IMG/VR virus record: IMGVR_UViG_3300021081_000002
Location: 1-57,647 of that record
Origin: a virus
Taxonomy: Duplodnaviria; Caudoviricetes
Length of the DNA stretch: 57,647 bases
Reading direction: 5' to 3' (one strand)
The notes beneath the pieces were generated by a model. That model saw only the letters and a list, made by a program, of their open reading frames with translations, did not search any database and was not told the origin of the DNA. The translations under genes were made by a program, and so were the position numbers. Shown one piece after another: positions 1-18,071 of this stretch (positions within the stretch are counted from its first letter, which is position 1; every line of letters begins with the position of its first letter).

Positions 1-127
1 CACCTAGACTTTAGTCCGCTACTAACCCGAGAGTTTTTTCCAAAATTCTCTTCTGGAAGTGTCTCGTTGCATCCAGTACACAACTTCATCGGATTATCCT
101 TCGGCTAGCTTCTTCGCAGTTGCAGCG
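1..127. repeat. Terminal direct repeat (circular assembly overlap), identical to 57521-57647
   Basis: Exact 127-bp identity of both ends. The length matches a common assembler k-mer, and the overlap cuts through two genes. Confidence 0.95.
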
Positions 128-600
128 GCCTTCGTCAGCTTGTCCATGTAGTCAACTGCACCTTCGGCGGCCTGCTTCACTTGCTTTTCCGCTTCCTCCT
201 CGGTTTGGGGAGTCTTGATAGCGAGTCTGTTCCGCTTCCTTGCTTCCCACGTCGCACCGAAGGCATCTTCTCTTCGACGCATCTCGGCCATCAATAGTGC
301 GACATTAGATGCGGCTAGTGGCTTATCGCGAGCGACGTCAGGCCGGCGGATTCTCCACAGTTCGTTGTGAATCATCGCAGCCTCCAACAGACTCCACCAG
401 TCTGTCTCGATCATCAGCTTCGCTTGGGGCGACCGGCGCCACATCTCCCACCACGCTCGGGTCAATTTGCACCACTGGATGTTCGGGTGGTCAGGGAGAT
501 CGAAACCCCTGATTACACCGTCCTCCGTGATGATCTCTTCCTCGAACCGTACTGGGTTCCTGCGGACGCGGTCTTCGTCATCCTTCGGAATATTGCCCAT
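94..600 (-). CDS. Terminase small subunit
   Basis: RVRRN and 'WWEMWRRSPQAKLMIETDW' motifs, typical of actinophage TerS. It lies upstream of the large terminase across the circular join. GGAGG RBS. Confidence 0.8.
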   Translation of the reverse strand: MGNIPKDDEDRVRRNPVRFEEEIITEDGVIRGFDLPDHPNIQWCKLTRAWWEMWRRSPQAKLMIETDWWSLLEAAMIHNELWRIRRPDVARDKPLAASNVALLMAEMRRREDAFGATWEARKRNRLAIKTPQTEEEAEKQVKQAAEGAVDYMDKLTKAAATAKKLAEG

Positions 601-622
601 CTTTGACCTCCTGGGTCTGATT

Positions 623-2146: not shown

Positions 2147-2155
2147 TCTCTCCTC

Positions 2156-4231
2156 CTAGAAATAGGTAACGACGATGCAAATGCCTGCACCACCTATGCC
2201 ACCCGCACCACTATTGTTCCCGTTGACTGAAGCACCGCCTCCGCCACCGCCTCCTCCATAGATTCCGCCAGCGGCTCCAGTTTGGCCGACTGTCGTAATG
2301 GAAGACGCACCACCACCGCCACCGGATCCAGGCACGCCCGAGCCAGTAGTGATTGCGGTACCAGAACCCGGTTGGGTGCTGTCTATGACACCACCAGCTC
2401 CAGAGGAGGCTGTCGCTGAGTTGCTTGCGCCTCCGTTACCGCCCGCACTCGCGGCGTTACCGGAAGAGATGCCTCCACCTCCGCCACCACCGCCTGATGC
2501 GGCAGACGTCGCAGAGTTAGCGCCAGCCGCGCCAGCCGCCGCAGCGGCTCCACCAGCAGTCCCGAGGTGAGCGCCGTTGCCAGCACTACCACCCGTACCG
2601 GCACTAGCAGTACCGCCGCTACCACCAGTAGGGGCACCAGACCGAACTAGCGTCCCGAACGTCGTCGCTGCGCCACCGGTACCGGCGTTGCCGTCCGTAT
2701 CGTTTGCTGTGATAGCGGTACCGCCTGCGCCAGCCGCACCGATTGTGACGGCTACGGTGGCACCTAAGATTGAAGCGGGGATGCGGTGCGCACTACTCCC
2801 AGCGCCACCACCACCGGATCCACCAGAACGGACTGAGCCGGCTGCACCTCGGCGGCCGGAGCCACCTCCGCCGCCACCAGCTATACAGCTGACGTCTACA
2901 AACTGAGCACCCGTTGGTTTAGTCCAAGTTCCCGTTGCTGTGAACACCTGGACATCTGTGGTTCGCACCGGAGGGACAACGCCCATCCGAGAGATTGTGC
3001 CAAGGTATTCGTCGATGTAGGTGTTGGTGAGGTTGCCGCTGTTGTCGTCTACTCCCGCAGTCGTCGCGCCAGAGTACGCGCCAGCGAGATTGACGTAGGT
3101 ATTCGAAACGCCACTAGCGATGGTGACGTTATGGCCTTTGTAACCCTTAACTCCAACGATTCGGTTGCGGTCCTGTAGCACCGTAACGCCGGTGTCGACA
3201 TTGACGGCGCCTGTACCCCGCCCGGGGATCTGACCCGTGATGGAGTTGCCACCGAAGTTCTCCGACACCGGAACAGCTAGACGGAAGTAGCTGGTGTTGG
3301 TGGCCGCAGCCTCCTTAGCGATATCAAAGAACTGGAAGTCGCTGATGATGTTAGCGGAACCTTCGATGTGAAACAGCGCGCCGTTGGTGGGGACGTGTAA
3401 GAACTCGTACCACCAGCTATCGAAGAGGTTGTCGTGGGGAGTGAACGAAGCATTGCCGGTGATCCTCGCTGCACCAGAGACGCCGCAGTCAGCCGAGCCT
3501 GTGATCGACCTGAACCCGATACCACGGAATCGGTTGCCGTTAGGCTCATCAGCGACGAAATAAGGGACGTCGTTAGCCTTAGCACTGACAGGGGTATTGA
3601 GTGTGATTCGTTCGAAGTCGGAGAGATAGACCCCGGAGCCGGGGTTTGATTTCAGCTCTAGACAAGGCCCACCAGTATTGGCAATTGCGATGTCGCAGAA
3701 CAACGCCGACCCCATGGCCAGCAGCCGGATGCCAGCGTTGTTCTTCGTGGCGTCAGCGACGTTACTGCCCTGGATGAAAACCCCAGATAGAGGCGTAATC
3801 CGTCCCATCGCGGAGGACGGCAGAACATACCCAGTGAAGTCCAGCACCGGCCCCGTCTGAGTACTTGCTTTAATGACAGAACCGTTCGGAGTAGAACCTG
3901 CTCCAACCCCCGCTCCGTCGCCATGAATCTGTACCGAGTAACCGCTTAGGCTCAAGCCGTTGAGGACGTCAATTACCATACCAGCGGGGATGCGAACGAT
4001 CGTGTACTTGCCCCGAGCCTCGGCCGCGTCGAGTGCGTTGATGAAGGCCGCACGGCTCCCCAGGGTGCCGAAAGCTGGGTTGTCTGCGCGAACCTCAAGC
4101 CCAGAGGTGTAGTTGGGGGTAAGGGAGGCAAGAGAGAGGCTGGCGCCAGTATCCGACAACACTAGCGAGTCAGCGTCGGTTATCGTCAGGCTCTCATTAG
4201 GTTCCTGAAATTGGAGATTGTCGCTAGTCAC
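2156..4231 (-). CDS. Tail spike/fibre-like protein: putative beta-helix domain plus Gly-rich C-terminal domain
   Basis: The N-terminus resembles pectate-lyase-like beta-helix caps (AAFINALDAA...IVRIPAG...IHGDG). The C-terminal ~265 aa are paralogous to 623-1430. Confidence 0.6.
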   Translation of the reverse strand: MTSDNLQFQEPNESLTITDADSLVLSDTGASLSLASLTPNYTSGLEVRADNPAFGTLGSRAAFINALDAAEARGKYTIVRIPAGMVIDVLNGLSLSGYSVQIHGDGAGVGAGSTPNGSVIKASTQTGPVLDFTGYVLPSSAMGRITPLSGVFIQGSNVADATKNNAGIRLLAMGSALFCDIAIANTGGPCLELKSNPGSGVYLSDFERITLNTPVSAKANDVPYFVADEPNGNRFRGIGFRSITGSADCGVSGAARITGNASFTPHDNLFDSWWYEFLHVPTNGALFHIEGSANIISDFQFFDIAKEAAATNTSYFRLAVPVSENFGGNSITGQIPGRGTGAVNVDTGVTVLQDRNRIVGVKGYKGHNVTIASGVSNTYVNLAGAYSGATTAGVDDNSGNLTNTYIDEYLGTISRMGVVPPVRTTDVQVFTATGTWTKPTGAQFVDVSCIAGGGGGGSGRRGAAGSVRSGGSGGGGAGSSAHRIPASILGATVAVTIGAAGAGGTAITANDTDGNAGTGGAATTFGTLVRSGAPTGGSGGTASAGTGGSAGNGAHLGTAGGAAAAAGAAGANSATSAASGGGGGGGGISSGNAASAGGNGGASNSATASSGAGGVIDSTQPGSGTAITTGSGVPGSGGGGGASSITTVGQTGAAGGIYGGGGGGGGASVNGNNSGAGGIGGAGICIVVTYF

Positions 4232-4541
4232 TTGCGATCACCTCGCCAATCAACAGAGTTTTGACGTATGGCGCAGTAATACGAAGCGTATGCCTCCCCC
4301 TGCCACTGAGATCATCCGTTTCAGTGGAGGGGAGGGTTAGAGTGATAACGCCCGTGACTCCGACGACGCTAAGCATCGAATTAGCGGTGTTAGCGACGAT
4401 AGTTACGGTATCAGTTACGAATTCCCATTCGATGGTTAGGCCACTGAGATCTACCGGTACACCGGCAGTCAGGTACTGAACCTGTCTGGTAGTGGTGTCG
4501 CCAGTGTATATATAGAAGTTGTAATTAGCTGGTAACCCCAC
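4224..4541 (-). CDS. Small virion-associated protein (fibre/baseplate adaptor-like)
   Basis: GDT...PVDLSG...GVITLTL pattern. GGAGGG RBS. Overlaps the start of the next gene. Confidence 0.55.
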   Translation of the reverse strand: MGLPANYNFYIYTGDTTTRQVQYLTAGVPVDLSGLTIEWEFVTDTVTIVANTANSMLSVVGVTGVITLTLPSTETDDLSGRGRHTLRITAPYVKTLLIGEVIASD

Positions 4542-4553
4542 TGTGCCCTCCCT

Positions 4554-5390
4554 CTATCGGTTCTTTCGGAATCGCTTCCACCACACGTGCCCGTGCTGAG
4601 ACTCGTCCACTAGCCTTCGCATCTTTTCGAGATCACCGGTTGCCCGGTTGTAGCGAATAGCGAGGTTGTCATTAGTTCGGGGGTGATGCTGTCCCTTCCA
4701 TTTCCGAGTCACCCAAGTATCGCCATGCTTCGGGTGCCACATATGGAGGACGTCGTTCTTGGAAGTCTTATGCTTCCCATATAGAGTATCGAGCGCTCGG
4801 ACGAAGGCGATGTCTTCACCACCCCAGCCACGGAAGCGCTTATCCATACCACCGACGAGTTCGAATGCCTCCCGGGGCATAATCTGGATTAACGCACCGA
4901 ACCGGTGGCCGAAGGCAGAGCCTTGGATCGACTCGACGTCCAAGTCACTCGGCGGGGACGGGAATCTCAGCGGGTCGGTGGGAGAACTCTGAAGTACTCT
5001 CTCAGTCGCTTCAGCTGTCAATCGGAACACACGGCGGTAGGGAACGAACCACAACGGATATCCCTTTCGCCGAGCGCGGTTGATACGCGCGGCGGCATCT
5101 CTGATTACCTGACCGGGAATATAGGTGTCCGCGTCGAGTATCACAAAGATGTTGCCACGTGCGCGTGAGGCAGCGTCGTTCACCGCGCAAGTCTTCGAAA
5201 AGGGGGTGCCGTTGTCATCCCCCATGACGATCTCGGCCTCGGGGAGTTCGCTAGCCCAGTAATGCTCTAGCCACTTCCAAATACGTTTCCGGTGAGCGTT
5301 ATCTGGCCGGAAGGGCACGAGGAGGGAAATTTTAGGATCGGGCGGTCTGTGATGGGGATGGCGTCGGTGGCGCCACCAGCTACTTACCAC
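4554..5390 (-). CDS. Glycosyltransferase, GT-A fold (GT2 / galactosyltransferase C-terminal type)
   Basis: ISLLVPF, DxD motif (LDADT), GGMDKRFRGWGGED. Start placed at GTG 5390, overlapping the upstream stop. Confidence 0.85.
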   Translation of the reverse strand: MVSSWWRHRRHPHHRPPDPKISLLVPFRPDNAHRKRIWKWLEHYWASELPEAEIVMGDDNGTPFSKTCAVNDAASRARGNIFVILDADTYIPGQVIRDAAARINRARRKGYPLWFVPYRRVFRLTAEATERVLQSSPTDPLRFPSPPSDLDVESIQGSAFGHRFGALIQIMPREAFELVGGMDKRFRGWGGEDIAFVRALDTLYGKHKTSKNDVLHMWHPKHGDTWVTRKWKGQHHPRTNDNLAIRYNRATGDLEKMRRLVDESQHGHVWWKRFRKNR

Positions 5391-6096
5391 TCTGCACCAT
5401 CTGACCAACCAACTCGAACATGTCGTATAACTCGTGCTGCATATCTTCGATCCAGTATCGCGGAGCTTGCTGAGTTTTGCCGAGCACCAGTTCCATGCCA
5501 AGCGAAGCAGAGTAGTCACGGAATTTAAACAACCCACCTTCCTTGTCTAGAGTCGTCGAATACTCGATTCGCCGGGGGATAGCGAAGGAGTCTGCCACGA
5601 TAATGCCGTGTAGTGAACTAGAGACAATTTTCTGGCACCGTCCGATCTCGGCAATAACCTCTAACGGGTCGCCTTCGGGACGGATAATGCGAGGGTTGTA
5701 TTTCGTGAACTGAGTTTCGAGGTGGTGATCGCTCCAGTGGGGAACGATACCGAGGTCGTATTCTTTCTTCACCGAAACGAGTTCATCACTAAGGAGTCCG
5801 GGGTCACCGATAACGATGTCTCGCCGACCACCCGAGGATAACGGACCCCTGGCTCCCAGGACTGTGGCATTGAAAGTCCGAGGGATGACGTCGGTGTTCT
5901 CGAATAGCATCCCAGAGCCAGCGACGATCCCGGTGTAGTGGGGAGTAACCGCTTCAAGGATAGAGCCGACACAGAGGATGTCAGCGTTTACCACTGGCGC
6001 CCATTCGACTTCTATCCCTGCAAATCGACTGAGAAGTAGTGGGGTGAGTTGGTCGCCGAAGTTCTTTTTGCCCTTCCACCAAAACGCAGTTGTCAT
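5380..6096 (-). CDS. Polysaccharide pyruvyl transferase family protein
   Basis: NFGD, GSIL, RGPLS, GDPGLL, GIVPHW and SSSLHGIIVAD motifs. Confidence 0.85.
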   Translation of the reverse strand: MTTAFWWKGKKNFGDQLTPLLLSRFAGIEVEWAPVVNADILCVGSILEAVTPHYTGIVAGSGMLFENTDVIPRTFNATVLGARGPLSSGGRRDIVIGDPGLLSDELVSVKKEYDLGIVPHWSDHHLETQFTKYNPRIIRPEGDPLEVIAEIGRCQKIVSSSLHGIIVADSFAIPRRIEYSTTLDKEGGLFKFRDYSASLGMELVLGKTQQAPRYWIEDMQHELYDMFELVGQMVQSGK

Positions 6097-6100
6097 CTCT

Positions 6101-7024
6101 CTAATCCTTTCGGAGAGCCAGCTTTATACCATCTTCGACGGAGATCTCAGGCGTGTAGTGTTCGAGCATCCTCGTTGGGTTGCCGACGCGGTAGCGGACA
6201 CCAGTAGGTTTACAGATGTCGTATGTCACCTGTGGCCGAGCCACCGGAGCGGTGTTGTGATGTGGCAACCCGAGGAAGCCACGGTCGAATGCGAGATCCC
6301 ATGCGGTCTTAGCTAGTGCCCCCATCTCTGTTCCAACGCCGGTGCAGAGATTGACAGGTCGACGGTCATCATCTCGATATACAGCATAAGCTGCTCGTAC
6401 GACATCGTCGATATGAATCCAATCTCTAGTTTGACCGGGTGGTCCCCACACCGTGAGATCGTTATTTCGGGCACGCCGAATGATGCTTGGAAACGGGTAA
6501 TCAAGAGATTGGTCTGCACCATATCCACTAAACGGCCGGACCACGTGTACTCGTAGGCCGAGTTCGTTTGCGGCCTTAGCGAGTCTTTCTCCGGTGACTT
6601 TGGCCCATCCGTAGTTGGCGTCGGGGTTGGCGACATCGAGAGAGAGATCTCTTTCTTCGAGATTCTTGTGGCAATACTGTCCCTGAAAGTGCGTAGGATA
6701 GACGGCAGAGCTAGAGAAATACAAAATAGCACGCTGCTGAGTCCGAACAGCCCAATTGAAAAGCTCGGCATCCAAGATGAGGTTGTCTGCAAGGTTTAGG
6801 TTCGTCCCATCGATTGTCGCTCTTCCACCGACCTTATAGGCGCAGTGGACGGCGAGGTCGTAGACCTCATCAGCAAAATGGAAATATTCGACAGCAGACA
6901 AGCCGTCGTAGGCTATATCGACGCATCTGACCTCGTAATCGAGGTCAACGAGGTAATCGACCATATGCCGGCCAACGAAGCCGTTGCTACCGGTTACGAG
7001 TGCAGTTTTCATTGACATCCCCAT
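6101..7024 (-). CDS. NAD-dependent epimerase/dehydratase (extended SDR)
   Basis: LVTGSNGFVG Rossmann motif, SSSAVY, catalytic YGWAK (YxxxK), QTRDWIHIDD. Confidence 0.92.
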   Translation of the reverse strand: MGMSMKTALVTGSNGFVGRHMVDYLVDLDYEVRCVDIAYDGLSAVEYFHFADEVYDLAVHCAYKVGGRATIDGTNLNLADNLILDAELFNWAVRTQQRAILYFSSSAVYPTHFQGQYCHKNLEERDLSLDVANPDANYGWAKVTGERLAKAANELGLRVHVVRPFSGYGADQSLDYPFPSIIRRARNNDLTVWGPPGQTRDWIHIDDVVRAAYAVYRDDDRRPVNLCTGVGTEMGALAKTAWDLAFDRGFLGLPHHNTAPVARPQVTYDICKPTGVRYRVGNPTRMLEHYTPEISVEDGIKLALRKD

Positions 7025-7557
7025 ATTTGGAAACAGTAGCCCGGGTCGAAGTAGGTCTCGCGGTAATGCGTGGGATTCCAGCCTGTGTCAACTAACATCG
7101 CCTTAACAGCCTCTTGATCCCAACTCCAGTAATGCTCGGGGTTGTCGTCCCGCCACCGACAGATTGGAGTGCTGACGATCAGCTTCTTCGACTTCTGACG
7201 TATCTGTCGTAGCACCGATTCTGGGTCGTCGAGATGTTCGAGGGTTTCGCAGCAAAAGAAGACGTCTACCTCTGGGATCTCCTTTATCGTCTCTTCGATC
7301 GGTCCGCAGTAGGCGTAGCCTGGAGCGTAATCCCCGAGGTACCGTTTCTGGAATGGCAGGCGATTGATGGTGAAAGCGTTACCGCAGGAGAGGTCAGCTC
7401 CGGTGTGGTCAGTGTCGTCCATCAGCTCTGCGGCTAGGTCCAGAGTCGAGCACACACGAAGGACATGATCTGGCCACTGAGTGTGGTCGTGGGGGACGGC
7501 GTAGATCTCTCTTAGCTCTTCGTCTGTATACTTCTCCCGGCAACGGTTGCGGTACAT
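7009..7557 (-). CDS. Class I SAM-dependent methyltransferase
   Basis: DLSCGNA motif I, ETLEHLDDP, LIVSTP. Confidence 0.8.
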   Translation of the reverse strand: MYRNRCREKYTDEELREIYAVPHDHTQWPDHVLRVCSTLDLAAELMDDTDHTGADLSCGNAFTINRLPFQKRYLGDYAPGYAYCGPIEETIKEIPEVDVFFCCETLEHLDDPESVLRQIRQKSKKLIVSTPICRWRDDNPEHYWSWDQEAVKAMLVDTGWNPTHYRETYFDPGYCFQIWGCQ

Positions 7558-8312
7558 CCGTACCTCGCTTCAAAGACGTCGGGATTAGCTAAAAGTTCCT
7601 TATCGGTGGGCCAGCCACCGTCAGCCCAGTCGAAGTTGCTACGGTTGCCGTGTTCGGGGAACCGCATCTTCCCGTTGGCGTAATACCCAGCTCCGCAAAA
7701 TGACCGCGTCGGCCGAGCTACCCGAAGAGGCCGCCGCTGAGACATCCGCTCGTACATCCAATTGCATCCGATGTGAGCCATAATCTTCCTTCGGCATATC
7801 GGCCAGACCTGGAATAGCAGTGCTAGCTGGTCGGTCTGGTAGTAGTCACCGGTTATGGTATCGGACAACCCACCGAGTTCGTAATAATTACTCCGCTGAA
7901 TGCCCCATAGCCCCGCAAGAAGTTGCCGACCATGATAGGGGTGGTCTCGGATGACGTGATAGGGCAACTCTGATTGTTGTGACCACTCACGGACAGCTGC
8001 GATTTCCCTGGAACAAAGCCTGGAATCGACATCCCTAAAGAGGATGAAGTCGTGATCAGAATGCTTCACCGCACGGAATCTCCACCACGTCGCGGTCTGA
8101 TCTTCTGGTTCGTCGACAAATTCGAAGTCGGCATGAGGGTTGCTGTTCCGGATACGAGTGACTACTGAATCTGGCACAGATCGACCGCAGTAATACCACA
8201 AGTCCCAGTCTGGATGAGATTTGCGGTAGTCGGCGGCATTTGTTATCGCACCACCGTAGTAGATGTCGTCCTCATCCAAACCAAACAAGCTAAAAGCAAC
8301 TAGCCCCCGCAC
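7512..8312 (-). CDS. Putative glycosyltransferase-like protein
   Basis: AFSLFG..Y..G, WRF, FRDVDSR (DxD), RDHPYH...AGLWG, DQ..L. Located inside the glycan cassette. Confidence 0.55.
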   Translation of the reverse strand: MRGLVAFSLFGLDEDDIYYGGAITNAADYRKSHPDWDLWYYCGRSVPDSVVTRIRNSNPHADFEFVDEPEDQTATWWRFRAVKHSDHDFILFRDVDSRLCSREIAAVREWSQQSELPYHVIRDHPYHGRQLLAGLWGIQRSNYYELGGLSDTITGDYYQTDQLALLFQVWPICRRKIMAHIGCNWMYERMSQRRPLRVARPTRSFCGAGYYANGKMRFPEHGNRSNFDWADGGWPTDKELLANPDVFEARYGCTATVAGRSIQTKS

Positions 8313-8315
8313 ATC

Positions 8316-8711
8316 TCACCTCCCATAGGTTCGGATTCGATGACAGTTAGCACAGACTACGTCGCACTTGTCTATCTCCTCTTGAACCAACCTAAGCGAA
8401 CGATGGGTGCCGGTGGCGATATTAAACTTTTTCTCTTTTGGATTACGGTGATCGAAGTCCATTACGCATGGCGGATATTTATTGCCGCAGTCCATACACG
8501 GAACGTCTTTGACGGAATTGGTGAGGCAGTAGAAAGCTTCAATACGTTCTTTCTTACCAGCGGCTCCCCAATTAGGGTTCTCTCGTCGCTTGACGTTTTC
8601 GCAATTCCTGCAATAAGACTTCAGGCCGTCGTAGCGTTTGGAGTTTTTATTGAACTCAGCCCGAGACTTTTCAGTGCTGCATCCCGGACAACGCTTTAAG
8701 CCGCGCGACAT
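8316..8711 (-). CDS. HNH endonuclease
   Basis: CxxC pairs, FDHR and KCDVVCANCHRIRT. Start placed at the ATG of MSRGLKRC. Confidence 0.85.
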   Translation of the reverse strand: MSRGLKRCPGCSTEKSRAEFNKNSKRYDGLKSYCRNCENVKRRENPNWGAAGKKERIEAFYCLTNSVKDVPCMDCGNKYPPCVMDFDHRNPKEKKFNIATGTHRSLRLVQEEIDKCDVVCANCHRIRTYGR

Positions 8712-9372
8712 CTCCACCAAACTCCCCACTGTCGTTATAGCGCGCGTACTCGGCGATGTCGGCGTTGGCCACAAGGTGGCTGTTCACTTCCTTGTAGTTG
8801 ACGTCATCCTTCCCCTTACCGGCGAGAGGGTGCATATGCTCGACTACCGTCTCCGGGAGATAGGTCAGGCGGTTGAGCGCCATACCCCAGTCTTTCCAGA
8901 CGACGTCAACACAAAGATGCTGGAAGCCAGGTGGGACCATATACCCGAGTGCTCGGGGGATGTTGGTAGTCATCGCTACCTGAGTGGGTATGGCCTCATA
9001 CTGGAAGAGATCGTTTCCGTATACGAACCCCGTTCCCAGTGTCTCCAATGCCTCAAGGTAGTCGTTGTCCCATCCTCGTGTACGAGCACGGTGATCGTCA
9101 CCCATGAAGCCAACTGCAAATCCCAGCCGAGGTGCGAGTGCTGTATAAGCTTGATTAAGTGCGTCGCACATTCCTCTTCGACCGCCCGGGACAGCAACGA
9201 CTCTCCCATATCCTGTAAGGAGCTTGTAGTATGTTGGTAGATACGGGTCGCTGTCGTCACAGACAATCACCAGTTCTGTCGATGCCGTCGTCGTATCTCT
9301 GAAATTGTCGTAGAGTTCTACAGCGCTCTTCGGCCTGCCTTTGGAAGGTACCAGTATGGTCAGCGCGCTCAT
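8671..9372 (-). CDS. Glycosyltransferase family 2
   Basis: ILVPSKGRP, VCDDSD, FMGDDH, VEHMHP. Confidence 0.8.
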   Translation of the reverse strand: MSALTILVPSKGRPKSAVELYDNFRDTTTASTELVIVCDDSDPYLPTYYKLLTGYGRVVAVPGGRRGMCDALNQAYTALAPRLGFAVGFMGDDHRARTRGWDNDYLEALETLGTGFVYGNDLFQYEAIPTQVAMTTNIPRALGYMVPPGFQHLCVDVVWKDWGMALNRLTYLPETVVEHMHPLAGKGKDDVNYKEVNSHLVANADIAEYARYNDSGEFGGDVARLKALSGMQH

Positions 9373-10048
9373 TGATCAGCTCCAGGGTAGCTTCGCGGTT
9401 AAGGTAGGCGGCGTTGTAACGGTGGAGGATTTCGACATCTTCCGGCTCCCAGTCGAGGGTTAGTTTGCCGGTAGGGTCCGCACGGTCGTGATAGAGGCAC
9501 ATCAGCACCCCGGGATGAAACACCGGTTGACCGACTAGCGTATGAGCGGCGTTAATCATCGCTCTGTCCTCACAACCCCAACCCCTCAGCCTTGAGTCTT
9601 GTCCACCTGCAAGCCACCATACGTCAGGTCGACAAACCCAAATTCCTCCCTGAGAAGGTCCTGCTCGGCAGATTGCTCGGTTTCGGAGCTGAGAAAGATT
9701 TGATCCTCCGGCGATATTGTGGATCGCTTTCGGCGACATCTCCCACACCTCATTGAAAGGGAAATGGAGAAGGTAGTCTTCAGACTGAATAGCATCTCTC
9801 AACGCCCTTTCCTCTGGGATGGAGTCAGCGTCGCAGAGGACCACCTTCTCAGCTCCGTAGCTCTCAGCCATCAACACTCCGAGATTTCTCGTCGCAGAGC
9901 GGTTAAAACGGACATAAGATCTGTCATCGGCAACTAAGACGTGATCGAACGGATACATCTCAGAGACGCGGTCCCGAGTGATCTTGAACGGCTCTTCCCG
10001 CGAGCCTGAGTCATCATTCCGGTACAGGAACACGAGAGCAGTCCGCAC
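9257..10048 (-). CDS. Glycosyltransferase, GT-A fold (galactosyltransferase C-terminal type)
   Basis: FNRSATRN, CDADS (DxD), GGQDSRLRGWGCED. Paralogous to 4554-5390. Confidence 0.82.
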   Translation of the reverse strand: MRTALVFLYRNDDSGSREEPFKITRDRVSEMYPFDHVLVADDRSYVRFNRSATRNLGVLMAESYGAEKVVLCDADSIPEERALRDAIQSEDYLLHFPFNEVWEMSPKAIHNIAGGSNLSQLRNRAICRAGPSQGGIWVCRPDVWWLAGGQDSRLRGWGCEDRAMINAAHTLVGQPVFHPGVLMCLYHDRADPTGKLTLDWEPEDVEILHRYNAAYLNREATLELINERADHTGTFQRQAEERCRTLRQFQRYDDGIDRTGDCL

Positions 10049-10187
10049 GGTTCTCCTTAGAGCCTGTTACACAGAGAGGGAGACAGCCCTACGGACTGGA
10101 CGATCACCAGTATCGAGTGACTGGGAATTTACTAGCCGATCCCTCTGTTGCACTCAGTAAGAGCCGCAACAGAGGGAGAGACCGACC

Positions 10188-10421
10188 ATGAACTACTACG
10201 ACCAGACCCCGACCACTTACAGCGCTAAGGAGCGTGGAATCTACTACCTGCTTTGGTGTCTGTTTGGCCTCATCGGAGGCCATCAGTTCTACCTCGGCCG
10301 GAACGGCAGAGCGCTGAGCTACATCTTGACGTTCGCGTGGGGCACCGTCGGTTTGTGGATCGACTTGTTCTCTGCTAGGAACCAGGTCAACCGGTCCAAC
10401 GCCGGAGAGTTCAGGAGTTGA
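10188..10421 (+). CDS. TM2-domain membrane protein
   Basis: YLLWCLFGLIGGHQFYLG...W.IDLF is the TM2 signature. Confidence 0.85.
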   Translation: MNYYDQTPTTYSAKERGIYYLLWCLFGLIGGHQFYLGRNGRALSYILTFAWGTVGLWIDLFSARNQVNRSNAGEFRS

Positions 10422-10422
10422 C

Positions 10423-10518
10423 ATGCTGATCTTCGAAATCGTCGTTTTTGTCGTCGTGACGATAGTCGGGCTGGCTGCTGTCGTTCTGTGGTTGGCCCAC
10501 CACGGCCCAAGGAGCTAA
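10423..10518 (+). CDS. 31-aa single-TM peptide (not in ORF track)
   Basis: MLIFEIVVFVVVTIVGLAAVVLWLAHHGPRS, with an AGGAG RBS, directly after the TM2 gene. Confidence 0.6.
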   Translation: MLIFEIVVFVVVTIVGLAAVVLWLAHHGPRS

Positions 10519-10519
10519 G

Positions 10520-10627
10520 ATGATCGAGATCCTGATTTTTGCCGCAGCGGCGCTGGTCGTACTAGGCGCAGTCGTCGCAGTGGTGGCCTATACCGACTAC
10601 CAGCAGAGGAAGCCATATACGGAGTAA
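10520..10627 (+). CDS. 35-aa single-TM peptide (not in ORF track)
   Basis: MIEILIFAAAALVVLGAVVAVVAYTDYQQRKPYTE, with an AAGGAG RBS. Confidence 0.6.
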   Translation: MIEILIFAAAALVVLGAVVAVVAYTDYQQRKPYTE

Positions 10628-10652
10628 AGTCACACTTCTTCCCGAGGGAGAA

Positions 10653-10728
10653 AAACAGGGGGATTTAGAGAGAGGGCCCGCCGGGGATGGCGGGCCCCTC
10701 TCGTGTCGTCTAAACGTCCCCCTGCTTA
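10653..10728. terminator. Long GC-rich hairpin between convergent units (terminator or small RNA)
   Basis: CAGGGGGA-TTTAGA-GAGAGGGCCCGCC pairs with GGCGGGCCCCTCTC-TCTAAA-TCCCCCTG. A T-run follows on the minus strand. Confidence 0.6.
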
Positions 10729-10754
10729 GACATTAGGTGTCCAGGGCTAAATAT
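10724..10754 (-). promoter_or_regulatory. Conserved intergenic motif, copy 1 (candidate phage-specific promoter)
   Basis: GCTTAnnnATTAGGTGTCCAGGnnnnAATAT is also present at 24035-24065 with the same spacing. Confidence 0.5.
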
Positions 10755-10773
10755 CACCCGAAACTACCACATA

Positions 10774-12813
10774 TTAGACATCTCCAGGGTTGTCCCCGAC
10801 GATCGGGCCAAAGAGGGTGGCGTCGGGGACTTCGTACACCTGGCCGTAGATCCTGGTCAGTTCCGCAACCCTCGCCGGCTCCGCGACCCACCGACGGAAC
10901 TTGTCATCGCCGTCAGCGAGGTAGACGGCAGTTTTACCACTACCCCTGATGAGGGCCTTTCGGAAGGACTTGTTCATCTCACCCTTCGTCGGGCCGCCGG
11001 TTACCACCGGTCGGTCGTTGATCAGAGCCTCGACTCGGAAGATCAGGGCGTTAAAATGGGTTTCGAAGTTAGCGGGCAGTGGCATATCTTCATCATCTCC
11101 TGTAGTGGTGTGGTTCCAGAAATATAGCGGTCCGCCGGTGGTGACGTCGTTGTCGCAGGCAGCACCAAGGACGGTGACGTTATTCTCCACCTGCCTGACG
11201 CTGGCGCGCTTATCGAAGGTAAAGTCGCTCCCACGGAGGTTGACGGTCTCAGCATTCGGACCGGTACCAACTTGACTCTTTAATGACCAGGCATACGCCT
11301 GCCAACCGTCCTGAATCACCCCCTGGTCGAATCCGAGGGAGATAACCCGGTAACCGCCGTAAACCCCGAAGCGGTAGCCAGCGGCGTTAGTCACTGCCCG
11401 CGCGGCGATCTGATATGGCTTCACTTGCCCGTTCCACGCCGACACAGAGACGTCGAAGTCGGCCGAGAAGTAGATAGTACTTCCCGAGGGGTATCCGAGG
11501 GCCCTAGCCTGCTTTACGGCCTCTGTGGCGTCGCTGGTCCCTCCAGCGGCACCCCTGGACTGATCCCCAGCGGTATTTTCCCAGTTCAGCATGATATTAA
11601 CCCCCGCTGCCAGGAGTTGGTCCCTCTCGGCGGCGAGAATGACTTTACCGTTGGGCAGTGGTGCGAGATACCGCGAAACGAAGGTGATCCCGAGGGGTTG
11701 GAGCCCAGAAAGTGGTGTTGGGCGACCCCATGAGTAGTCGAGACCCTTCAATTTCAACCCGACGGTGGGCGGGGGTGTAGGTGGTGGTGGCGGAGGCGGC
11801 AAAATGACTCCTTGGCGAGCTTGGAAAGCGGCGAGTGTCTCTCCCCGCATGATGCTGAGCGTAGCATCCATTGCTAAATACGATCCGCAGTCCTTACGAT
11901 TGAAGGAGATGTGAATGTGCCACAAGTGGCTGGTATCGGAGGTTGTAGTCCGATGAGCACGGAAGTCCCAACCCTCGACGCCGTTGTCATCGTCAGTCTG
12001 GCCGAAGAACTCCTTCATGTACCCCGAACGGGGGTCGTTAGCCTGTCCAGCGGCGAGAAGCCGGTTTGCATATCTCTTGATGGTGGTATAGTCCCCGGCC
12101 TGGGCGTCTGGGAAGGTTAGATCGATAGCACTGGCCCTGTCGGGGCCCGTGCGGTCATCGGCGTGCTGGACGGAGTAGTCACCGGAACTGTTCTGGCTCC
12201 GGGTGTTGTGATAGCCGGGCTTGTTGGCGTAGATCCCGCCGAGCAGGGTACGCGGCTCGACATTGACATCAAACTGCCTCCAGAACCACCACATCGCGTC
12301 TGTGACGTAATTCGGATTGGGGTTGTCACTGATCGCGACGGGAGCGGGGGCCGGAACGGGGACCGATGACGGCGGGGGTGTAGTTTGTACCCTAATGGAC
12401 GCTAACCACTGGTCTGCGAGTGTTGCGCTTGTTGCGAGGTGTACGTGGTTCGCATGCTGTGCCTTCGTCGCGGCGTCGTAGACGTCCGCTACCCTCTGGT
12501 TCTTGACATAGAAGCCGTTGTCCGTGTCGAAGGGGGTCGTATGGATTTCCTCCACGATGTACTTCGAGAACTGGATCAGCCACAGTGCGACGTCTCTCCC
12601 CTTCTCCGGCTGGCCGGTTCCGCCGAAGCCTATGTCGATTGCGACCGCCATACTTCCGCCATACTGGAGATTTCCGCTGTGATAGCTCCCCGGCTCACTT
12701 CGGACCGAGGATGTGATGTAGATGTCGGCCTTACCTGGATAGAATTCGAGAATTTCGAGGAGTTTGCGTCCGATGTCGTTGAGTTGGACGTCACTCCAGA
12801 CGGTGATAGCCAT
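10774..12813 (-). CDS. Endolysin: two zinc-peptidase-like domains plus a DUF1906-type glycoside hydrolase domain
   Basis: YHS...AIDI...HANHVH; YHN...AIDL...HLWHIH; GLDYS...FVSRYL...NWE...IYFSADFD...GVYGG...WQAYAWS; Pro-rich linkers. Start placed at ATG 12813 (GAAGGGA RBS). Confidence 0.85.
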   Translation of the reverse strand: MAITVWSDVQLNDIGRKLLEILEFYPGKADIYITSSVRSEPGSYHSGNLQYGGSMAVAIDIGFGGTGQPEKGRDVALWLIQFSKYIVEEIHTTPFDTDNGFYVKNQRVADVYDAATKAQHANHVHLATSATLADQWLASIRVQTTPPPSSVPVPAPAPVAISDNPNPNYVTDAMWWFWRQFDVNVEPRTLLGGIYANKPGYHNTRSQNSSGDYSVQHADDRTGPDRASAIDLTFPDAQAGDYTTIKRYANRLLAAGQANDPRSGYMKEFFGQTDDDNGVEGWDFRAHRTTTSDTSHLWHIHISFNRKDCGSYLAMDATLSIMRGETLAAFQARQGVILPPPPPPPTPPPTVGLKLKGLDYSWGRPTPLSGLQPLGITFVSRYLAPLPNGKVILAAERDQLLAAGVNIMLNWENTAGDQSRGAAGGTSDATEAVKQARALGYPSGSTIYFSADFDVSVSAWNGQVKPYQIAARAVTNAAGYRFGVYGGYRVISLGFDQGVIQDGWQAYAWSLKSQVGTGPNAETVNLRGSDFTFDKRASVRQVENNVTVLGAACDNDVTTGGPLYFWNHTTTGDDEDMPLPANFETHFNALIFRVEALINDRPVVTGGPTKGEMNKSFRKALIRGSGKTAVYLADGDDKFRRWVAEPARVAELTRIYGQVYEVPDATLFGPIVGDNPGDV

Positions 12814-12875
12814 AGATATGTCCCTTCGGGGCTCTGTCTGCGTCTTGGCGGCGATTTCGGACAAAATGGGGCAAA

Positions 12876-12904
12876 ATTATGGCATCAAGTGCCACATCGA
12901 CCAA
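12876..12904 (-). promoter_or_regulatory. Putative housekeeping-sigma promoter for the lysin/structural arm
   Basis: TTGGTC-17 nt-CATAAT on the minus strand. Confidence 0.45.
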
Positions 12905-12963
12905 TCTACAGGTAGTACAAACTGTTAGAGGCGAAGACGAATAGTGCAGCGACGTTTATCGAT

Positions 12964-13340
12964 GGGGGTACCCCCCCTACCCCACCACCACTAGACACCA
13001 GACACACACCACAGTGGTGGGTACCGGTACCTGGGTACCGGTACCTGTAAGGGATCCCTTATGTGACTCCAGTACCGGTACCTCTAAGGGATCCCTTAGG
13101 GTCCCATATGGAGGGTAGGTACCGGTACCCTACTAAGGGATCCGTTAAGGGATTCCTTAAGGGATCCGTTATAAGGATTGTTATTATGGGTCCTATATCA
13201 TGGGGTAGTAAGGGATCCGTTAATAGGCACCATATGGGTCCCATCGACATCGATATGCGAGGCGACACATATGAGCGATGTGAGAGGTATGTATTATATT
13301 TATTAACAGATCCCTTATTAATATAACAGATCCCTTATGT
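12964..13340. repeat. Array of short palindromes (GGTACCGGTACC and TAAGGGATCC(C/G)TTA families)
   Basis: GGGGGTACCCCC at 12964. GGTACCGGTACC at 13020, 13034 and 13118, core only at 13072. About 8 TAAGGGATCCCTTA-like copies between 13048 and 13338. Confidence 0.9.
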
Positions 13341-13800
13341 ATATGTATAGTATACATACCACTACTATATATATATTATACATATATATAATACATATAT
13401 ATATTATATACATATATATACTATATGTATATATATATACTATATGTGTATGTATATACTACTACTATATATATACTATACATATATATACTACATACAT
13501 ATATGTACCATATACATATACCATATACTAATAGCGTATGTATGTGTGGTATGTATGGTATGTATATACATATACCATATGTGTATAGTGTATATGCACA
13601 TAGCATATGCACATAGCACTAAGAGATATAGCATATGCACATAGCATATGCATGTGCACCATCACGGTAGCGTGATAGGGGTATATAGCACATGCACACC
13701 CTGCACCTGCGACAGCACGTGCACCCCACGCCACATGGCAGGTACGTGCACCCCACACCACAGCACGAGGTGTGCTCCACGCCACACCCACACCACACCC
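13337..13800. repeat. AT-rich TA-type low-complexity tract grading into CATATGCACA / GCACGTG alternating purine-pyrimidine repeats
   Basis: Directly visible. ATAGCATATGCACATAGCA is repeated at about 13600-13650. Confidence 0.9.
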
Positions 13801-13820
13801 CGTCCTCGCCACACCCTGAT

Positions 13821-13849
13821 TTGCATTCAAGCTAGGTGTATGCTAAGCT
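13821..13849 (+). promoter_or_regulatory. Strong early promoter
   Basis: TTGCAT-17 nt-TAAGCT with an extended -10 TGn, at the head of the plus-strand arm. Confidence 0.7.
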
Positions 13850-13855
13850 TGAGAG

Positions 13856-14975
13856 GTAGGGCAAGGAAGACAGAGTTGACAACTGAAGAGGCTAGGTAGA
13901 GGTACTCAGTGAGGTAGTTCACAAACTGATACCCCGGTTGCAGGTCTAGACCCCCTGGAAGTACAGAGGGAATTATCTGAGAGCCACAGTGTTATACCTA
14001 GTAGAGAGCAAAATAGCAAAGGGACACACCGATCGGGTTGAACGAAGATCCAATTGGATGCGAGAGATCCGGTTCGTGACCAAGAGTCCTGATGTACCGA
14101 ATAGAGACAGCGTCCAGCTAATGATGCCAGAGGGTTGCCACCCCGAGCGCGTCATGTGGGTATCGCTTCACAGCGATCAGTACTTTATCTCGTTCCGGCC
14201 CACTACTGGTACACACCAATTAGAGAGTTGTGTGTAGGGTGCGAGGTCATACGCTGTCCAGTGTACGTTGTACGGTTTGAGGGGTCTGTGAAGGTAGTTA
14301 GCCACAGTGCAACAACACGACAACGTACGCGAAACATGAGTCCAGCCACACATGAGCCGGTAGTTAGGCGGGATGCCAGACGGCTAGTCAGTAGTTTGAC
14401 GGGATGTCAGAGGCTAGCGGGACTCAAGGCAGTACGTCCCCTACCATCCAGGGGTTACAGGGATGATGAAGACGTGAGTATGGGTGCGTTCCTTGGCGCT
14501 AGCAAGACGGTTGCCAAGTGGCCTAGTGAGGCTAGGCGACGTACCCAGATCCTCTAAGGAGTTGATCGCTCACGGGCCGGGTACTACGAGGGAGAGTGCC
14601 AACGACCGCACTTAGCACGGATTGAGGAGCCGGTGCTATCTGGGGGGAGGTTGATAGGTGACGTTAACGGACCTATCAGACTGTACCAGGGTAGCAACCT
14701 TGTCCGGAAACGTGGAGAGTGCAAGATCAGCTTCATAGACTGATCATGACACAACAGAGAGACTTAACACATACTTAGCACTTAGCTTCACACTTCGCAC
14801 TACATCGCACATAGAGCACTGGACCCAAACACGGGCGGCAACACTGCTTAGAGGATACGTCGTACGACCACAGACGGGCATTTAGGTAGGCAGTCCTAAT
14901 AGAGGGTAGGTAGTTAGGCAGGATGCCAGACTGGTGTGTCAGGTCATGAGCGGGATGCTCGCGACACACACGATG
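13856..14975 (+). ncRNA. Candidate large structured non-coding RNA / leader
   Basis: No convincing ORF. Many helices with G-U pairs, a three-way junction (14482-14546) and repeated GGA-loop hairpins. Confidence 0.6.
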
Positions 14976-15026
14976 TGCTCACACATACAATCACAACTAG
15001 AAGATAGATCAAGAGAAGGTGAGGTA

Positions 15027-15161
15027 ATGAATAGCATCTGTGGCTACCTGCTAGAACACGCAGAGGCCACAACCGAATTCAAGCTTGAGTGGGTTACCAC
15101 CCCGCTTAGGACCGCCATGGGAGTAATGCATCTAGTCCAGCAAAGTGGTATCCTCGGCTAG
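15027..15161 (+). CDS. Small hypothetical protein (44 aa)
   Basis: ATG preceded by a GAAGGTGAGG RBS-like stretch. Confidence 0.35.
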   Translation: MNSICGYLLEHAEATTEFKLEWVTTPLRTAMGVMHLVQQSGILG

Positions 15162-15198
15162 ATGTACTACTGAGAGGGAGAGGGGGAGGTGTTGCAAG

Positions 15199-15849
15199 AT
15201 GTATACGCTGTTAGTCGTTGGAATCGGGATCGTGGGCGCTCTCCTAGGGTGGATCCTCGGCTATAGAAAGGCAAGCCGACGATCAGAAGATATAGAGAGG
15301 GCTGCCCACCTTGACAAACTAACTGGGCTGTTTGATAGGGCCATCGTCGAAAACGCTATTGATGATGCCACGAAGAGTGGCGTCAACCTCACAATTGGGG
15401 TATGTGACGTCAACGGCCTACATGACATCAACGAGTCCTTGGGGCACGCTGCGGGCGATCAACTGCTCTTAGCCGTGTCTCATCGCTTACTCGACCTTCT
15501 CCCCGAGGGAGAGGGATTGGTGGCAAGAACGGGGGGAGATGAGTTCTGGATTGCAACCTCTCAGTCACCTCAAAGCCTAGTAGATGCGTATACCTCTGAC
15601 ATCGACGGCTTGGCTCACAGGGCCAGTGTCGGAGTTGCATCATCCCCACAAAACGGGTCGCCGAGACACGCTGTCCTCTGTGCAGATCTCGCGATGTACT
15701 CAGCAAAGAGTAGCCACACACCTGCGATGATCTATAACCAGAGCACTATGGGTACGCCTGAAGAGCAGAATGAAGGACTACCGGAGGAGATCAAGTACGA
15801 GCATCGCCATCACGAGCGCCGACAAAAAGAGAGAAGGAAAAGGGCGTGA
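15199..15849 (+). CDS. Membrane-anchored GGDEF-domain protein (putative diguanylate cyclase)
   Basis: N-terminal TM helix, DKLTGLFDR, DVNGLHDINESLGHAAGD, ARTGGDEF, ASVGVA, ADLAMYSAK. GGAGG RBS before ATG 15199. Confidence 0.9.
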   Translation: MYTLLVVGIGIVGALLGWILGYRKASRRSEDIERAAHLDKLTGLFDRAIVENAIDDATKSGVNLTIGVCDVNGLHDINESLGHAAGDQLLLAVSHRLLDLLPEGEGLVARTGGDEFWIATSQSPQSLVDAYTSDIDGLAHRASVGVASSPQNGSPRHAVLCADLAMYSAKSSHTPAMIYNQSTMGTPEEQNEGLPEEIKYEHRHHERRQKERRKRA

Positions 15850-15912
15850 CTACTACACTAGGGATGATCTTGATGCTGGGAATCATATACCCGTTCTTGG
15901 TGTTGTAGCGGA

Positions 15913-16150
15913 TATGGATCCCAACATCACACTCCTACGCATCCGTGAGTTGAGCCATAGGCTTAACAGGACCTACGACGAACTCACCGAGCTAGCTGAG
16001 CTAGTGGAAGAGCTTGATCACTGGATGACCAGAGGTGGCTTCCTTCCGAAAGCATGGGAGCACAAGCCACGAACCAGAGAGTGGTGGGACAAGGTAGCTA
16101 CAGGAGAAGAAGTGGCTACCCCCCGCTACGAGAGGGAGGGGTCACCATGA
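15913..16150 (+). CDS. Hypothetical protein (MDPN...LDHWMTRGGFLPKAW, actinophage type)
   Basis: The motif is familiar from actinophage early genes. Coupled to the next gene by ATGA. Confidence 0.6.
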
Positions 16151-16408: not shown

Positions 16409-17401
16409 ATGACCAAGGAAACTCAGCAGTGGCTAGAGTCCAACATCCGCGTCGGCTTCACGAAGCAGAGAGGGAATGCGTGGTGGTATGAGGGAGACAC
16501 TCAGAGCCACTACACCGGCGAAGTCCCCGAGGAGGAGGTCAAGCGGCTACTTGGCTTCCCAGTCGTCGAGAGCCCTGTGTACGTCAACGTCGAGCCGGAT
16601 AGCACGGGGAAGCTCGTAGTCCCTGACAAGAAGGCCATCATCCGAGGAGACACAGGGGAGGTCTTCAACATCACCGCGAGCGGCTACCAAGTACACCCAC
16701 TGACTGAGTGGCTGTATGACAGCGTCTACCAGATGCTAGACGGCGGGGTAGGGGTCGGCAGTGTTGGACTCCTGAATGGTGGCAGGGTCGCCTTCGTTCA
16801 GATGGAGCTGCCAGAGAACCAGCGGGGCCCTAACGGCGAAGACTTCCGACCGTTCGTAGCGGCTACGACCTCACTGGACTCCTCACTGGCAACTGAGTAC
16901 CAGCGGGGGACGACTCGGATCGTCTGCGACAACACCCGTAGTGCGTTCTTCGCCCATGGTGGTGGGCTGAAGAAGCGGCACACCAAGAACTCAAGTGTGA
17001 AGCCTCAAGAACTGCGGGACCACCTCGGGATCGCACTTGAACAGATCTCCGAGGACTACATCGCAGAGATCGAGGCGCTGACCTCGAAGGACGTCAGTGA
17101 GCGACAGTGGGCCGCGTTCCTCAACGAGTACGCGCCTATCCCCGAGAACCCCGGTAGGGGCCAGACGATGGCCAGGAACAAGCAGGACGCCCTCATGGGG
17201 TTGTGGGAGTCCGATGACCGAGTACCAGCGGGGACGGAGTGGGGAGTGCTGCAAGCCGTCAACACCTACAACCAGCACGTCCGAACCGTGAAGGAGGTCG
17301 ACAGGGTAGAGCGGAACTACATGAACCTCCTAGAGGGCAAGACCGCGAAGGAGGACAGGACGACACTGGAAGTGTTGGATCGGGTACTGTCGCGGGCGTG
17401 A
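16409..17401 (+). CDS. DUF932-family phage/plasmid protein
   Basis: G.LNGGR.AF, TSLDSS, TRIVCDNT, RHT, GTEWGVLQAVNTY. AAGGAGG RBS. Confidence 0.85.
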   Translation: MTKETQQWLESNIRVGFTKQRGNAWWYEGDTQSHYTGEVPEEEVKRLLGFPVVESPVYVNVEPDSTGKLVVPDKKAIIRGDTGEVFNITASGYQVHPLTEWLYDSVYQMLDGGVGVGSVGLLNGGRVAFVQMELPENQRGPNGEDFRPFVAATTSLDSSLATEYQRGTTRIVCDNTRSAFFAHGGGLKKRHTKNSSVKPQELRDHLGIALEQISEDYIAEIEALTSKDVSERQWAAFLNEYAPIPENPGRGQTMARNKQDALMGLWESDDRVPAGTEWGVLQAVNTYNQHVRTVKEVDRVERNYMNLLEGKTAKEDRTTLEVLDRVLSRA

Positions 17402-17417
17402 TACCGTGAGTTAACCG

Positions 17418-17445
17418 TGGGGGCGTCGGGAAACCGGCGCTCCCA
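17418..17445 (+). terminator. GAAA-capped GC-rich hairpin (terminator or processing site)
   Basis: GTGGGGGCGTCGG-GAAA-CCGGCGCTCCCAC. Confidence 0.5.
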
Positions 17446-17469
17446 CTCTCTATTTGCCGAGGGGTATTG

Positions 17470-17715
17470 ATGGAGACAGATCAAGACGAAGAAGTCGAAG
17501 AAGCCACTGTCGACTCCGATGAGTACGAGCACGCATTTTGCTCTGTTTGTAACGACTTGAGTTGGGCGACGCTCGCGGCCATCCAACCGGGTGATGTCCT
17601 ACTGACGATATGCGGTCTGAGACGGCCTATAAGGAACAAACTCCCGACGTGCCCCACTTGCCTACCGTCTTGGCGTACGATGACGTGTATGTTCCACTCA
17701 AGGGGGCAAACGTGA
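17470..17715 (+). CDS. Small Cys-rich hypothetical protein
   Basis: HxxCxxC...CG...CPTC. GAGGGG RBS. Confidence 0.55.
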   Translation: METDQDEEVEEATVDSDEYEHAFCSVCNDLSWATLAAIQPGDVLLTICGLRRPIRNKLPTCPTCLPSWRTMTCMFHSRGQT

Positions 17716-18071
17716 GGTGGTGTGTGATCGAGGGGTACCCGAACTACCAGATCAGTGATCGCGGGACGGTGCGCGGTCCAAGAGGGGTCTTGAAGCCATG
17801 GCTACAGAAACGTGGAGGGTATCCTGCCGTCAGACTCAGCAAGGGCACCTATGCCAGTCAAAAGAACTGGTGCGTGCACACACTCGTTGCTAACGCATTC
17901 CTTGGACCTAAGCCTACGTCGAAGCACGAAGTCTGCCATCGTGACTCTAACCCTACCAACAACCGTGTCTCTAACATATACTGGGGCACTAGAGCAGACA
18001 ACGTACGCGATGCTATGAACCGGGGCACCGCATTCAATGTAGGTCGGGATGGTGGAAGATGGTCAAAGTAG
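17712..18071 (+). CDS. NUMOD4-HNH homing-type endonuclease
   Basis: EGYPNYQISDRGTVR, VHTLVANAF, VCHRDSNPTNNRVSNIYWGT. Overlaps the dnaE start. Confidence 0.88.
   Translation: MRWCVIEGYPNYQISDRGTVRGPRGVLKPWLQKRGGYPAVRLSKGTYASQKNWCVHTLVANAFLGPKPTSKHEVCHRDSNPTNNRVSNIYWGTRADNVRDAMNRGTAFNVGRDGGRWSK

Follow-up and report, generated by a model that had tools for sequence, protein, structure and literature searches.

A gene-poor stretch with a structured core between the divergent arms of an actinobacterial phage genome, tentatively read as a long early leader RNA

The 1.1-kb stretch at positions 13856-14975 of the complete phage genome IMGVR_UViG_3300021081_000002 is real and unannotated; most of it is non-coding, its structured core has moderate support, and it contains a repeated hairpin that is RNA-like in character. 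Our tentative reading, to which we give a little under an even chance, is that it forms the long, largely non-coding 5' leader of the rightward early operon. The preliminary description of this DNA had proposed a structured non-coding RNA of 1.1 kb; the scarcity of genes, the position at the head of the rightward early arm and a structured core of 0.5 kb agree with that proposal, but the stretch is not one 1.1-kb structured RNA, since its 5' third folds at chance level and has codon-like periodicity in the frame of an 82-aa open reading frame (ORF). Direct observations are the anatomy of the region, the folding excess of its core, compensating substitutions among the hairpin stems, and one relative in which the same layout recurs.

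The window, meaning the whole stretch of DNA that was analysed, is the entire genome of 57,647 bp, which carries an exact 127-bp terminal repeat. Genes on the minus strand span 94-12864 and form a leftward lysis/structural arm, the last of them encoding a lysin with an Rv2525c-like domain; genes on the plus strand span approximately 15027-37539, the rightward early arm, and include those for GGDEF and DUF932 proteins, an HNH endonuclease and a DnaE-type polymerase. The stretch sits within the 2.2-kb gap that separates these divergent arms. Since the DnaE is at most 42.6% identical to its counterparts in Streptomyces phages, the genome represents an uncultured, distant actinobacterial phage. 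A tRNA or tmRNA can be set aside as an explanation of the stretch, as a search found none. The setting comprises the following features:

13016-13250: GGTACC repeats and palindromes of about 14 bp, TAAGGGATCCCTTA and variants, at least nine copies (repeat search)
13250-13600: AT-rich, microsatellite-like tract of (TA)n/(CATA)n, 22-33% GC (sequence, composition)
13585-13816: two direct-repeat families just upstream of the promoter-like site, ATAGCATATGCACA (five copies) and GTGCACCCCACGCCACA (three copies)
13821-13849, plus strand: promoter-like TTGCAT-17 nt-TAAGCT, its -10 preceded by TG, immediately behind the repeat tract (script scan)
14987-14992, plus strand: TACAAT, which may be a proximal -10, located 35 nt ahead of the first gene (read by eye, flagged by no tool)
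15027-15161, plus strand: 44-aa ORF, the first to have a strong ribosome-binding site (duplex -9.7 kcal/mol)
15199-15849, plus strand: GGDEF diguanylate cyclase gene (Pfam PF00990, E 4e-20; ribosome-binding duplex -15.2 kcal/mol)

In the GGDEF protein, encoded by the second gene of the early arm (15199-15849), the GGDEF motif is intact, the N-terminal part includes a hydrophobic segment and the C-terminal tail is rich in arginine; the protein may change c-di-GMP signalling in the host. Further along the arm, an HNH/NUMOD4 homing-type endonuclease gene (17610-18071) lies immediately before the DnaE polymerase gene and overlaps it slightly.

The site at 13821 had been described as a near-consensus promoter, which overstates the match: its two hexamers each agree with the Escherichia coli consensus at three of six positions, with an extended -10 TG, and a sigma-70 scan did not flag it. 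It fits the loose actinobacterial pattern TTGNNN-16..19-TANNNT, which has a genome-wide frequency of 0.42 per kb per strand (24 occurrences on the plus strand), and it is the sole plus-strand site of this kind between 12865 and 14227. The plus-strand purine fraction rises at about 13800 from 0.50 to 0.56-0.57 and is then kept at the level of the plus-strand genes. Given this uniqueness and the purine rise, the position of the site is still suggestive. The TACAAT at 14987 could be an alternative early start that drives the early genes independently of the leader; if so, the leader reading and the reading as a separate RNA, considered below, would both be weakened. The terminator scan found no plus-strand terminator-like site in 12800-15300; with none ahead of the first genes, a separate transcript is no more likely than a 5' leader. 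One RNA-seq metatranscriptome run contains a fraction of 0.89 of the sampled words from 13000-16000, a match at contig level that covers the upstream tract too and could stem from carried-over DNA. A literature search for Streptomyces phage transcriptomes found no relevant publication among those listed.

The helices reported in the preliminary description are all present, with coordinates off by at most 1-2 nt, and they fall into segments of different folding behaviour (z-scores against dinucleotide-shuffled sequences):

13856-14239, plus strand: purine-rich 5' segment without excess structure, holding the 82-aa ORF (z -0.50; 33 of 100 shuffles as good)
14162-14177, plus strand: helix ATCGCT/AGCGAT (in sequence)
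14210-14236, plus strand: helix TACACA/TGTGTA (in sequence)
14240-14760, plus strand: structured core, a chain of stem-loops (z -3.93; none of 100 shuffles as good)
14262-14330, plus strand: hairpin with an 11-bp base helix (14262-14272/14320-14330, one G.U) around CTGTG/CACAG (sequence and fold)
14482-14546, plus strand: three-way junction with two G.U pairs (sequence and fold)
14609-14720, plus strand: long irregular stem-loop with TGATAGGT/ACCTATCA as its tip (in the minimum-energy and centroid structures)
14613-14638, plus strand: helix TAGCAC/GTGCTA (in sequence)
14652-14678, plus strand: helix TGATAGGT/ACCTATCA (in sequence)
14725-14745, plus strand: helix GATCAG/CTGATC (in sequence)

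From 14262 onwards these helices are recovered in the RNAfold minimum-energy structure of 14240-14760, and the two upstream ones, ATCGCT/AGCGAT and TACACA/TGTGTA, in folds of the 5' part and of individually picked elements. The observation that mismatches are G-U wobbles on the plus strand also holds, in that the two largest helices have plus-strand G.U pairs that are A.C mismatches on the minus strand. Among the elements picked by the analyst, the three-way junction is the standout (14478-14550, z -3.68 on the plus strand with none of 200 shuffles as good, vs. -2.02 on the minus strand); the fold of 14258-14334 gave z -2.68 vs. -1.72 (200 shuffles) and that of 14604-14690 z -2.35.

The expectation that the stretch would fold better than shuffles is borne out for part of its length. 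The core, whose limits 14240-14760 were picked after the helices had been inspected, lies beyond six coding controls of the same 521-nt length (z -0.01, 1.66, -0.81, 1.11, 0.13 and -1.01), but the 5' segment 13856-14239 does not exceed chance and the stretch as a whole does so weakly (13856-14855, 1000 nt, plus strand, z -2.18, none of 20 shuffles as good). The segment downstream of the core is marginal (14761-15030, plus strand, z -1.80, 9 of 200 shuffles as good), and 14895-14975 folds better on the minus strand (z -3.70 vs. -1.94). The core itself also folds on the minus strand (z -2.85, none of 100 shuffles as good), and given this value DNA-level hairpins in the core are compatible with the data. 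Eleven 200-nt windows over the stretch average a z of about -1.15, three of them at -2 or lower; the corresponding mean for 47 coding windows is -0.32 (sd 1.19), again with three at -2 or lower. Since the 200-nt windows within the core are unremarkable (z -0.89, 0.15, -0.96 and -2.15), its excess rests on longer-range helices. The strongest folding among the 47 control windows occurs at 17351-17550 (z -4.88), which spans the gap between the end of the DUF932 gene at 17401 and the start of the HNH gene at 17610. The fold of 14761-15030 shows a C/U-rich word, GCUUCAC...CUUCG (14785-14797), paired with 15013-15023, where the first ORF has its ribosome-binding site; this predicted pairing, in a segment with an overall z of only -1.80, could mask translation of that ORF. 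Words of the TAGCAC type recur in the leader at 14770-14820.

A second line of evidence is a small hairpin with an RGGAU loop that occurs in two modules on either side of a C-rich tract:

14359-14420, plus strand: Module A, a tandem 31-nt repeat, each unit with a small GGGAU-loop hairpin (repeat family D7, hairpin census)
14724-14840, plus strand: C-rich, G-poor, rut-like stretch separating the hairpin modules (78-nt windows with C/G ratios as high as 2.27)
14909-14969, plus strand: Module B, a third repeat copy (AGGAU hairpin, loop 14920-14924) followed by a GAGC-GGGAU-GCTC hairpin (repeat search, hairpin census)

The stems of Module A pair 14367-14369 with 14375-14377 and 14397-14400 with 14406-14409; in Module B, GAGC-GGGAU-GCTC (14948-14960) is enclosed by the helix GTGTGTC/GACACAC. 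The 21-nt motif shared by the repeat copies has just three occurrences in the genome, at 14360, 14391 and 14910, and each copy holds a stem-RGGAU-stem hairpin. A closing stem of at least 3 bp flanks three of the 84 GGGAT sites on the plus strand, all three within the stretch, and one of 52 AGGAT sites, the copy at 14920. When the four hairpins are aligned, 18 of 20 cells pair and three of the five pairs change on both sides, a result reached by 5 of 500 shuffles, and slid registers of the alignment pair at 20-45%; the set consists of four copies found by eye, three of them from one repeat family. A conserved loop with compensating arms is the opposite of what a palindromic DNA operator would show and, as a pattern in the sequence, fits a hairpin that is read by a protein. 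The C-rich tract belongs to the top 1% of the early arm, where the 99th percentile of the C/G ratio across 1716 plus-strand windows is 2.05.

In the leader reading, transcription would probably start just past the repeats and the AT-rich tract, near 13856. The transcript would pass through the purine-rich, unstructured 5' part, then through the chain of stem-loops of about 520 nt (14240-14760), then through the C-rich, G-poor tract and into the second hairpin module; in the absence of a terminator it would run on into the 44-aa ORF and the GGDEF gene. We infer that the four RGGAU-loop hairpins may be bound, as RNA, by a protein through which the early transcript is controlled in its read-through, stability or processing. 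Rho could enter at the C-rich tract and be overridden by such a factor, although antitermination of this kind is purely inferential.

No alignable homolog of the stretch was found in the collections searched (phage records, viral, metagenome and genome contigs). A blastn search (word size 11) with 13800-15050 against 50,697 phage records returned no match, and the earlier impression that no known RNA family is present was confirmed: Rfam gave no match at gathering score in the whole window and none in 13856-14975 at E<=10. At the latter threshold, all 41 weak matches in 12865-15250 lie in the AT repeat tract at 13016-13662, which draws spurious matches to microRNA families. The 23-nt and 21-nt repeat motifs had no match in viral contigs and one in genome contigs, in an Algoriphagus genome, which is approximately the chance expectation. 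Relatives were sought through proteins. The lysin query of viral contigs found distant relatives only (L002 and L003, 41-45% identity); the DnaE query found one viral contig (L004, 48%) and three metagenome contigs (L006-L008, 45-48%), which are the nearest genomes; the DUF932 protein query of viral contigs added no further relative, and a DUF932 alignment search of them gave none. In L002, L003, L004, L007 and L008, no AT-rich tract or ORF-poor gap comparable to the stretch was found, and a DNA search of three relatives' records yielded a single 14-nt match (E 0.73), inside a gene.

The remaining contig, L006, whose DnaE is 45% identical (best tblastn segment) and whose DUF932 protein is 38-40% identical to those of the phage, has the following order of elements: TAAGGGATTCCTTA palindromes, a (TA)n tract, a promoter-like site (TTGTGC-16-TAGAGT at 446), an ORF-poor region of about 600 nt, small genes with ribosome-binding sites, and DUF932. 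Its TAAGGGATTCCTTA palindromes share 76-85% DNA identity with the repeat tract of the phage, and its (TA)n tract, at 240-370, is similar as well. The L006 leader shows a strand-specific folding excess (z -3.12 sense vs. -0.44 antisense), and a 521-nt piece of it gave z -2.43 next to controls of 0.01, -1.27 and -0.11. The two leaders are unalignable, with a Smith-Waterman score of 13.5 and a shuffle mean of 13.7; since they align at chance level, the shared layout is an analogy or a conserved arrangement rather than proven homology or an RNA family. At 1008-1045, just before the first small gene, L006 has a strong hairpin with a 9-bp stem, GGGAGGUAAG...CUUACCUCUCCC, followed by CGUUUGU, which judging by its sequence may be a terminator or attenuator; the terminator scan did not flag it.

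The closest precedent comes from cluster A mycobacteriophages (L5, D29, StarStuff), in which a non-coding region of about 500 bp downstream of Pleft gives rise to an RNA that is described as abundant, stable and toxic (PMC5712189). The precedent invoked in the preliminary description is thus on record. The likeness lies in an actinobacterial phage with hundreds of bases free of convincing genes after a presumed early promoter at the head of the early arm; the placement directly downstream of that promoter, as in cluster A, holds if the promoter-like site at 13821 is real. The stretch differs in being about twice as long, in occupying a central divergent region rather than the right genome end, and in containing ORFs of 82 and 140 aa; in the cluster A region, no ORF exceeds approximately 30 codons. 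The two share no sequence similarity (blastn against the 50,697 phage records), and abundance, stability and toxicity are known for cluster A.

On this model, which is that of the preliminary description, the first early transcript would itself be, or be processed into, at least one discrete and stable non-coding RNA that acts in trans on the host, as has been proposed for the abundant Pleft-proximal RNAs of cluster A; we consider this reading unlikely. Its position by the early arm and the missing convincing genes match the cluster A region (PMC5712189); the structured core (z -3.93) would suit such an RNA, and the 9-bp hairpin with GUUUGU at about 1008-1045 in L006 could end a transcript before the first gene. 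On the other hand, no terminator-like site precedes 15027 and the L006 hairpin was passed over by the terminator scan, while the 5' third is unstructured and nothing similar appears in any of the 50,697 phage records.

Other RNA systems offer partial parallels to the leader. In lambdoid phages, leader RNA sites such as the nut boxB hairpins and the HK022 put RNA serve processive antitermination. The RGGAU hairpins are boxB-like in being small, with a conserved pentaloop and variable stems, and in lying in an early operon leader upstream of a possible Rho entry site; unlike boxB, they have stems of just 3-6 bp, the loop of one copy, AGGAU, does not begin with G, and the host is actinobacterial. 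GOLLD and ROOL are large structured non-coding RNAs found in phages, comparable in size class and phage setting; in contrast to them, the stretch has no Rfam match at E<=10, a folding excess limited to about 520 nt and no family of homologs. Riboswitches for c-di-GMP occur upstream of GGDEF/EAL genes, and the stretch is likewise a structured leader upstream of a GGDEF gene; this candidate was rejected, as a search of 12865-15250 at E<=10 gave no match to any model of a c-di-GMP riboswitch.

A different explanation, which we regard as improbable, is that the stretch acts as DNA, as part of a replication origin or control region that would also take in the palindromes and AT tract upstream, its 21-nt repeats serving as protein sites or single-strand hairpins. 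The palindrome/GGTACC tract is kept at the DNA level in L006 (50-230, 76-85%) and in contig L108 (12090-12460, 93% over 44 nt), despite proteins that are only 38-48% identical to those of the phage in L006 and without detectable similarity in L108; this tract is possibly an origin, or else an array of master operators. Windows of 200 nt starting at 13101-13301 fold with z -2.3 to -4.7 on both strands, and 13401-13600 is at chance. A search with the palindrome TTAAGGGATYCCTTA matched at least 109 stretches, nearly all of them single and chance-like, with motif clusters only in L108 and L093; a two-unit pattern matched L108 and one coding region in L118. The L108 contig ends within the repeat tract and therefore carries no leader. 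In L093, an unrelated low-GC viral contig, five palindromes of the CTAAGGAATCCCTTAA type occur within about 280 nt (9360-9650), with the same core palindrome as in this phage, which may be a coincidence or reflect a widely shared DNA-binding specificity.

The DNA reading draws on the adjoining TAAGGGATCCCTTA palindromes, GGTACC repeats and (TA)n tract (22-33% GC), conserved in L006 and L108, on the minus-strand folding of the core (z -2.85), and on a 21-nt motif whose three copies are the only ones in the genome. It is opposed by the hairpins, all four of which keep the loop and vary the arms with compensation, the reverse of what a palindromic operator would do; by the G.U pairs of the main helices, which are A.C mismatches on the other strand; by the strand-specific folding excess in L006; and by the purine-rich composition of the stretch, like that of the transcribed plus-strand arm.

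The leader reading also depends on the coding potential of the stretch. The preliminary description saw no credible gene for over 1.1 kb; this stands insofar as the first start with a strong ribosome-binding site is that at 15027, apart from ORFs of only 26-36 aa at 14633-14658, but two plus-strand ORFs of 140 aa (14135-14557) and 82 aa (13989-14237), the longest in the stretch, have to be considered. Among ten ORFs on both strands, none matched a Pfam or PHROG family below E 0.01, the sole match being a minus-strand ORF at E 0.035. The 140-aa ORF has no homolog among 5.8 billion proteins and a codon score of -0.083, compared to a gene mean of 0.20; since the tandem repeat units are 31 nt apart, it reads each of them in a different frame. 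The 82-aa ORF scores -0.004, binds the ribosome with an energy of -4.2 to -5.2 kcal/mol at best (the value is -6 or better for 56 of 64 sense ORFs), and its only match in the protein database is itself, as a called protein from the same genome. GC periodicity in its frame is 0.19 over 13901-14200 (coding mean 0.165; shuffle 95th percentile 0.13), and we consider it possible, if doubtful, that this ORF is a real small gene. Across 14200-15000, periodicity is 0.02-0.085, shuffle-like, and this part looks non-coding.

That part of the stretch encodes small orphan early proteins, chiefly the 82-aa ORF, with a correspondingly shorter non-coding gap, is in our estimate also rather improbable. The periodicity of the 82-aa frame, above the coding mean, its record as a called protein, and the analogous interval of L006, packed with many genes of 34-66 aa, speak for such genes; the weak ribosome-binding energy, the near-zero codon score and the lack of a homolog or Pfam/PHROG family speak against the 82-aa ORF, as do the negative score, the missing homolog and the repeat read in two frames against the 140-aa ORF. 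That the stretch is a functionless spacer or decayed remnant with chance helices is very improbable: the 1000-nt z of only -2.18, the absence of a known family and the lack of measurable conservation would suit it, but the core lies outside all six controls (z -3.93), the hairpin motif recurs with compensating changes, and a similar leader is kept in a relative with proteins only 38-48% identical.

The region is best described as a variation on the theme of early-promoter-proximal non-coding RNAs or long leaders in actinobacterial phages, and as a candidate known from one genome, with an analogous region in one relative. To our knowledge, early control in actinobacterial phages is poorly understood, and its sole studied precedent, the cluster A Pleft RNAs, is without a known mechanism. 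In a more far-reaching form, which we hold to be unlikely as a whole, a little-sampled lineage of actinobacterial phages would open its early operon with a structured leader RNA that is large (0.5-1.1 kb) and evolves fast. Its paired RGGAU-loop modules would be read by a phage or host protein that decides whether early transcription goes ahead, and the adjoining palindromes and AT tract, conserved as DNA, would be an origin or master control region. If true, this would amount to a new class of RNA and a new early-control circuit. The repeated hairpin motif provides a concrete handle for the discovery of a binding protein, and if a second phage lineage, unrelated to cluster A, does carry a long structured leader in this position, such RNAs would seem to be an early device of general use in actinobacterial phages.
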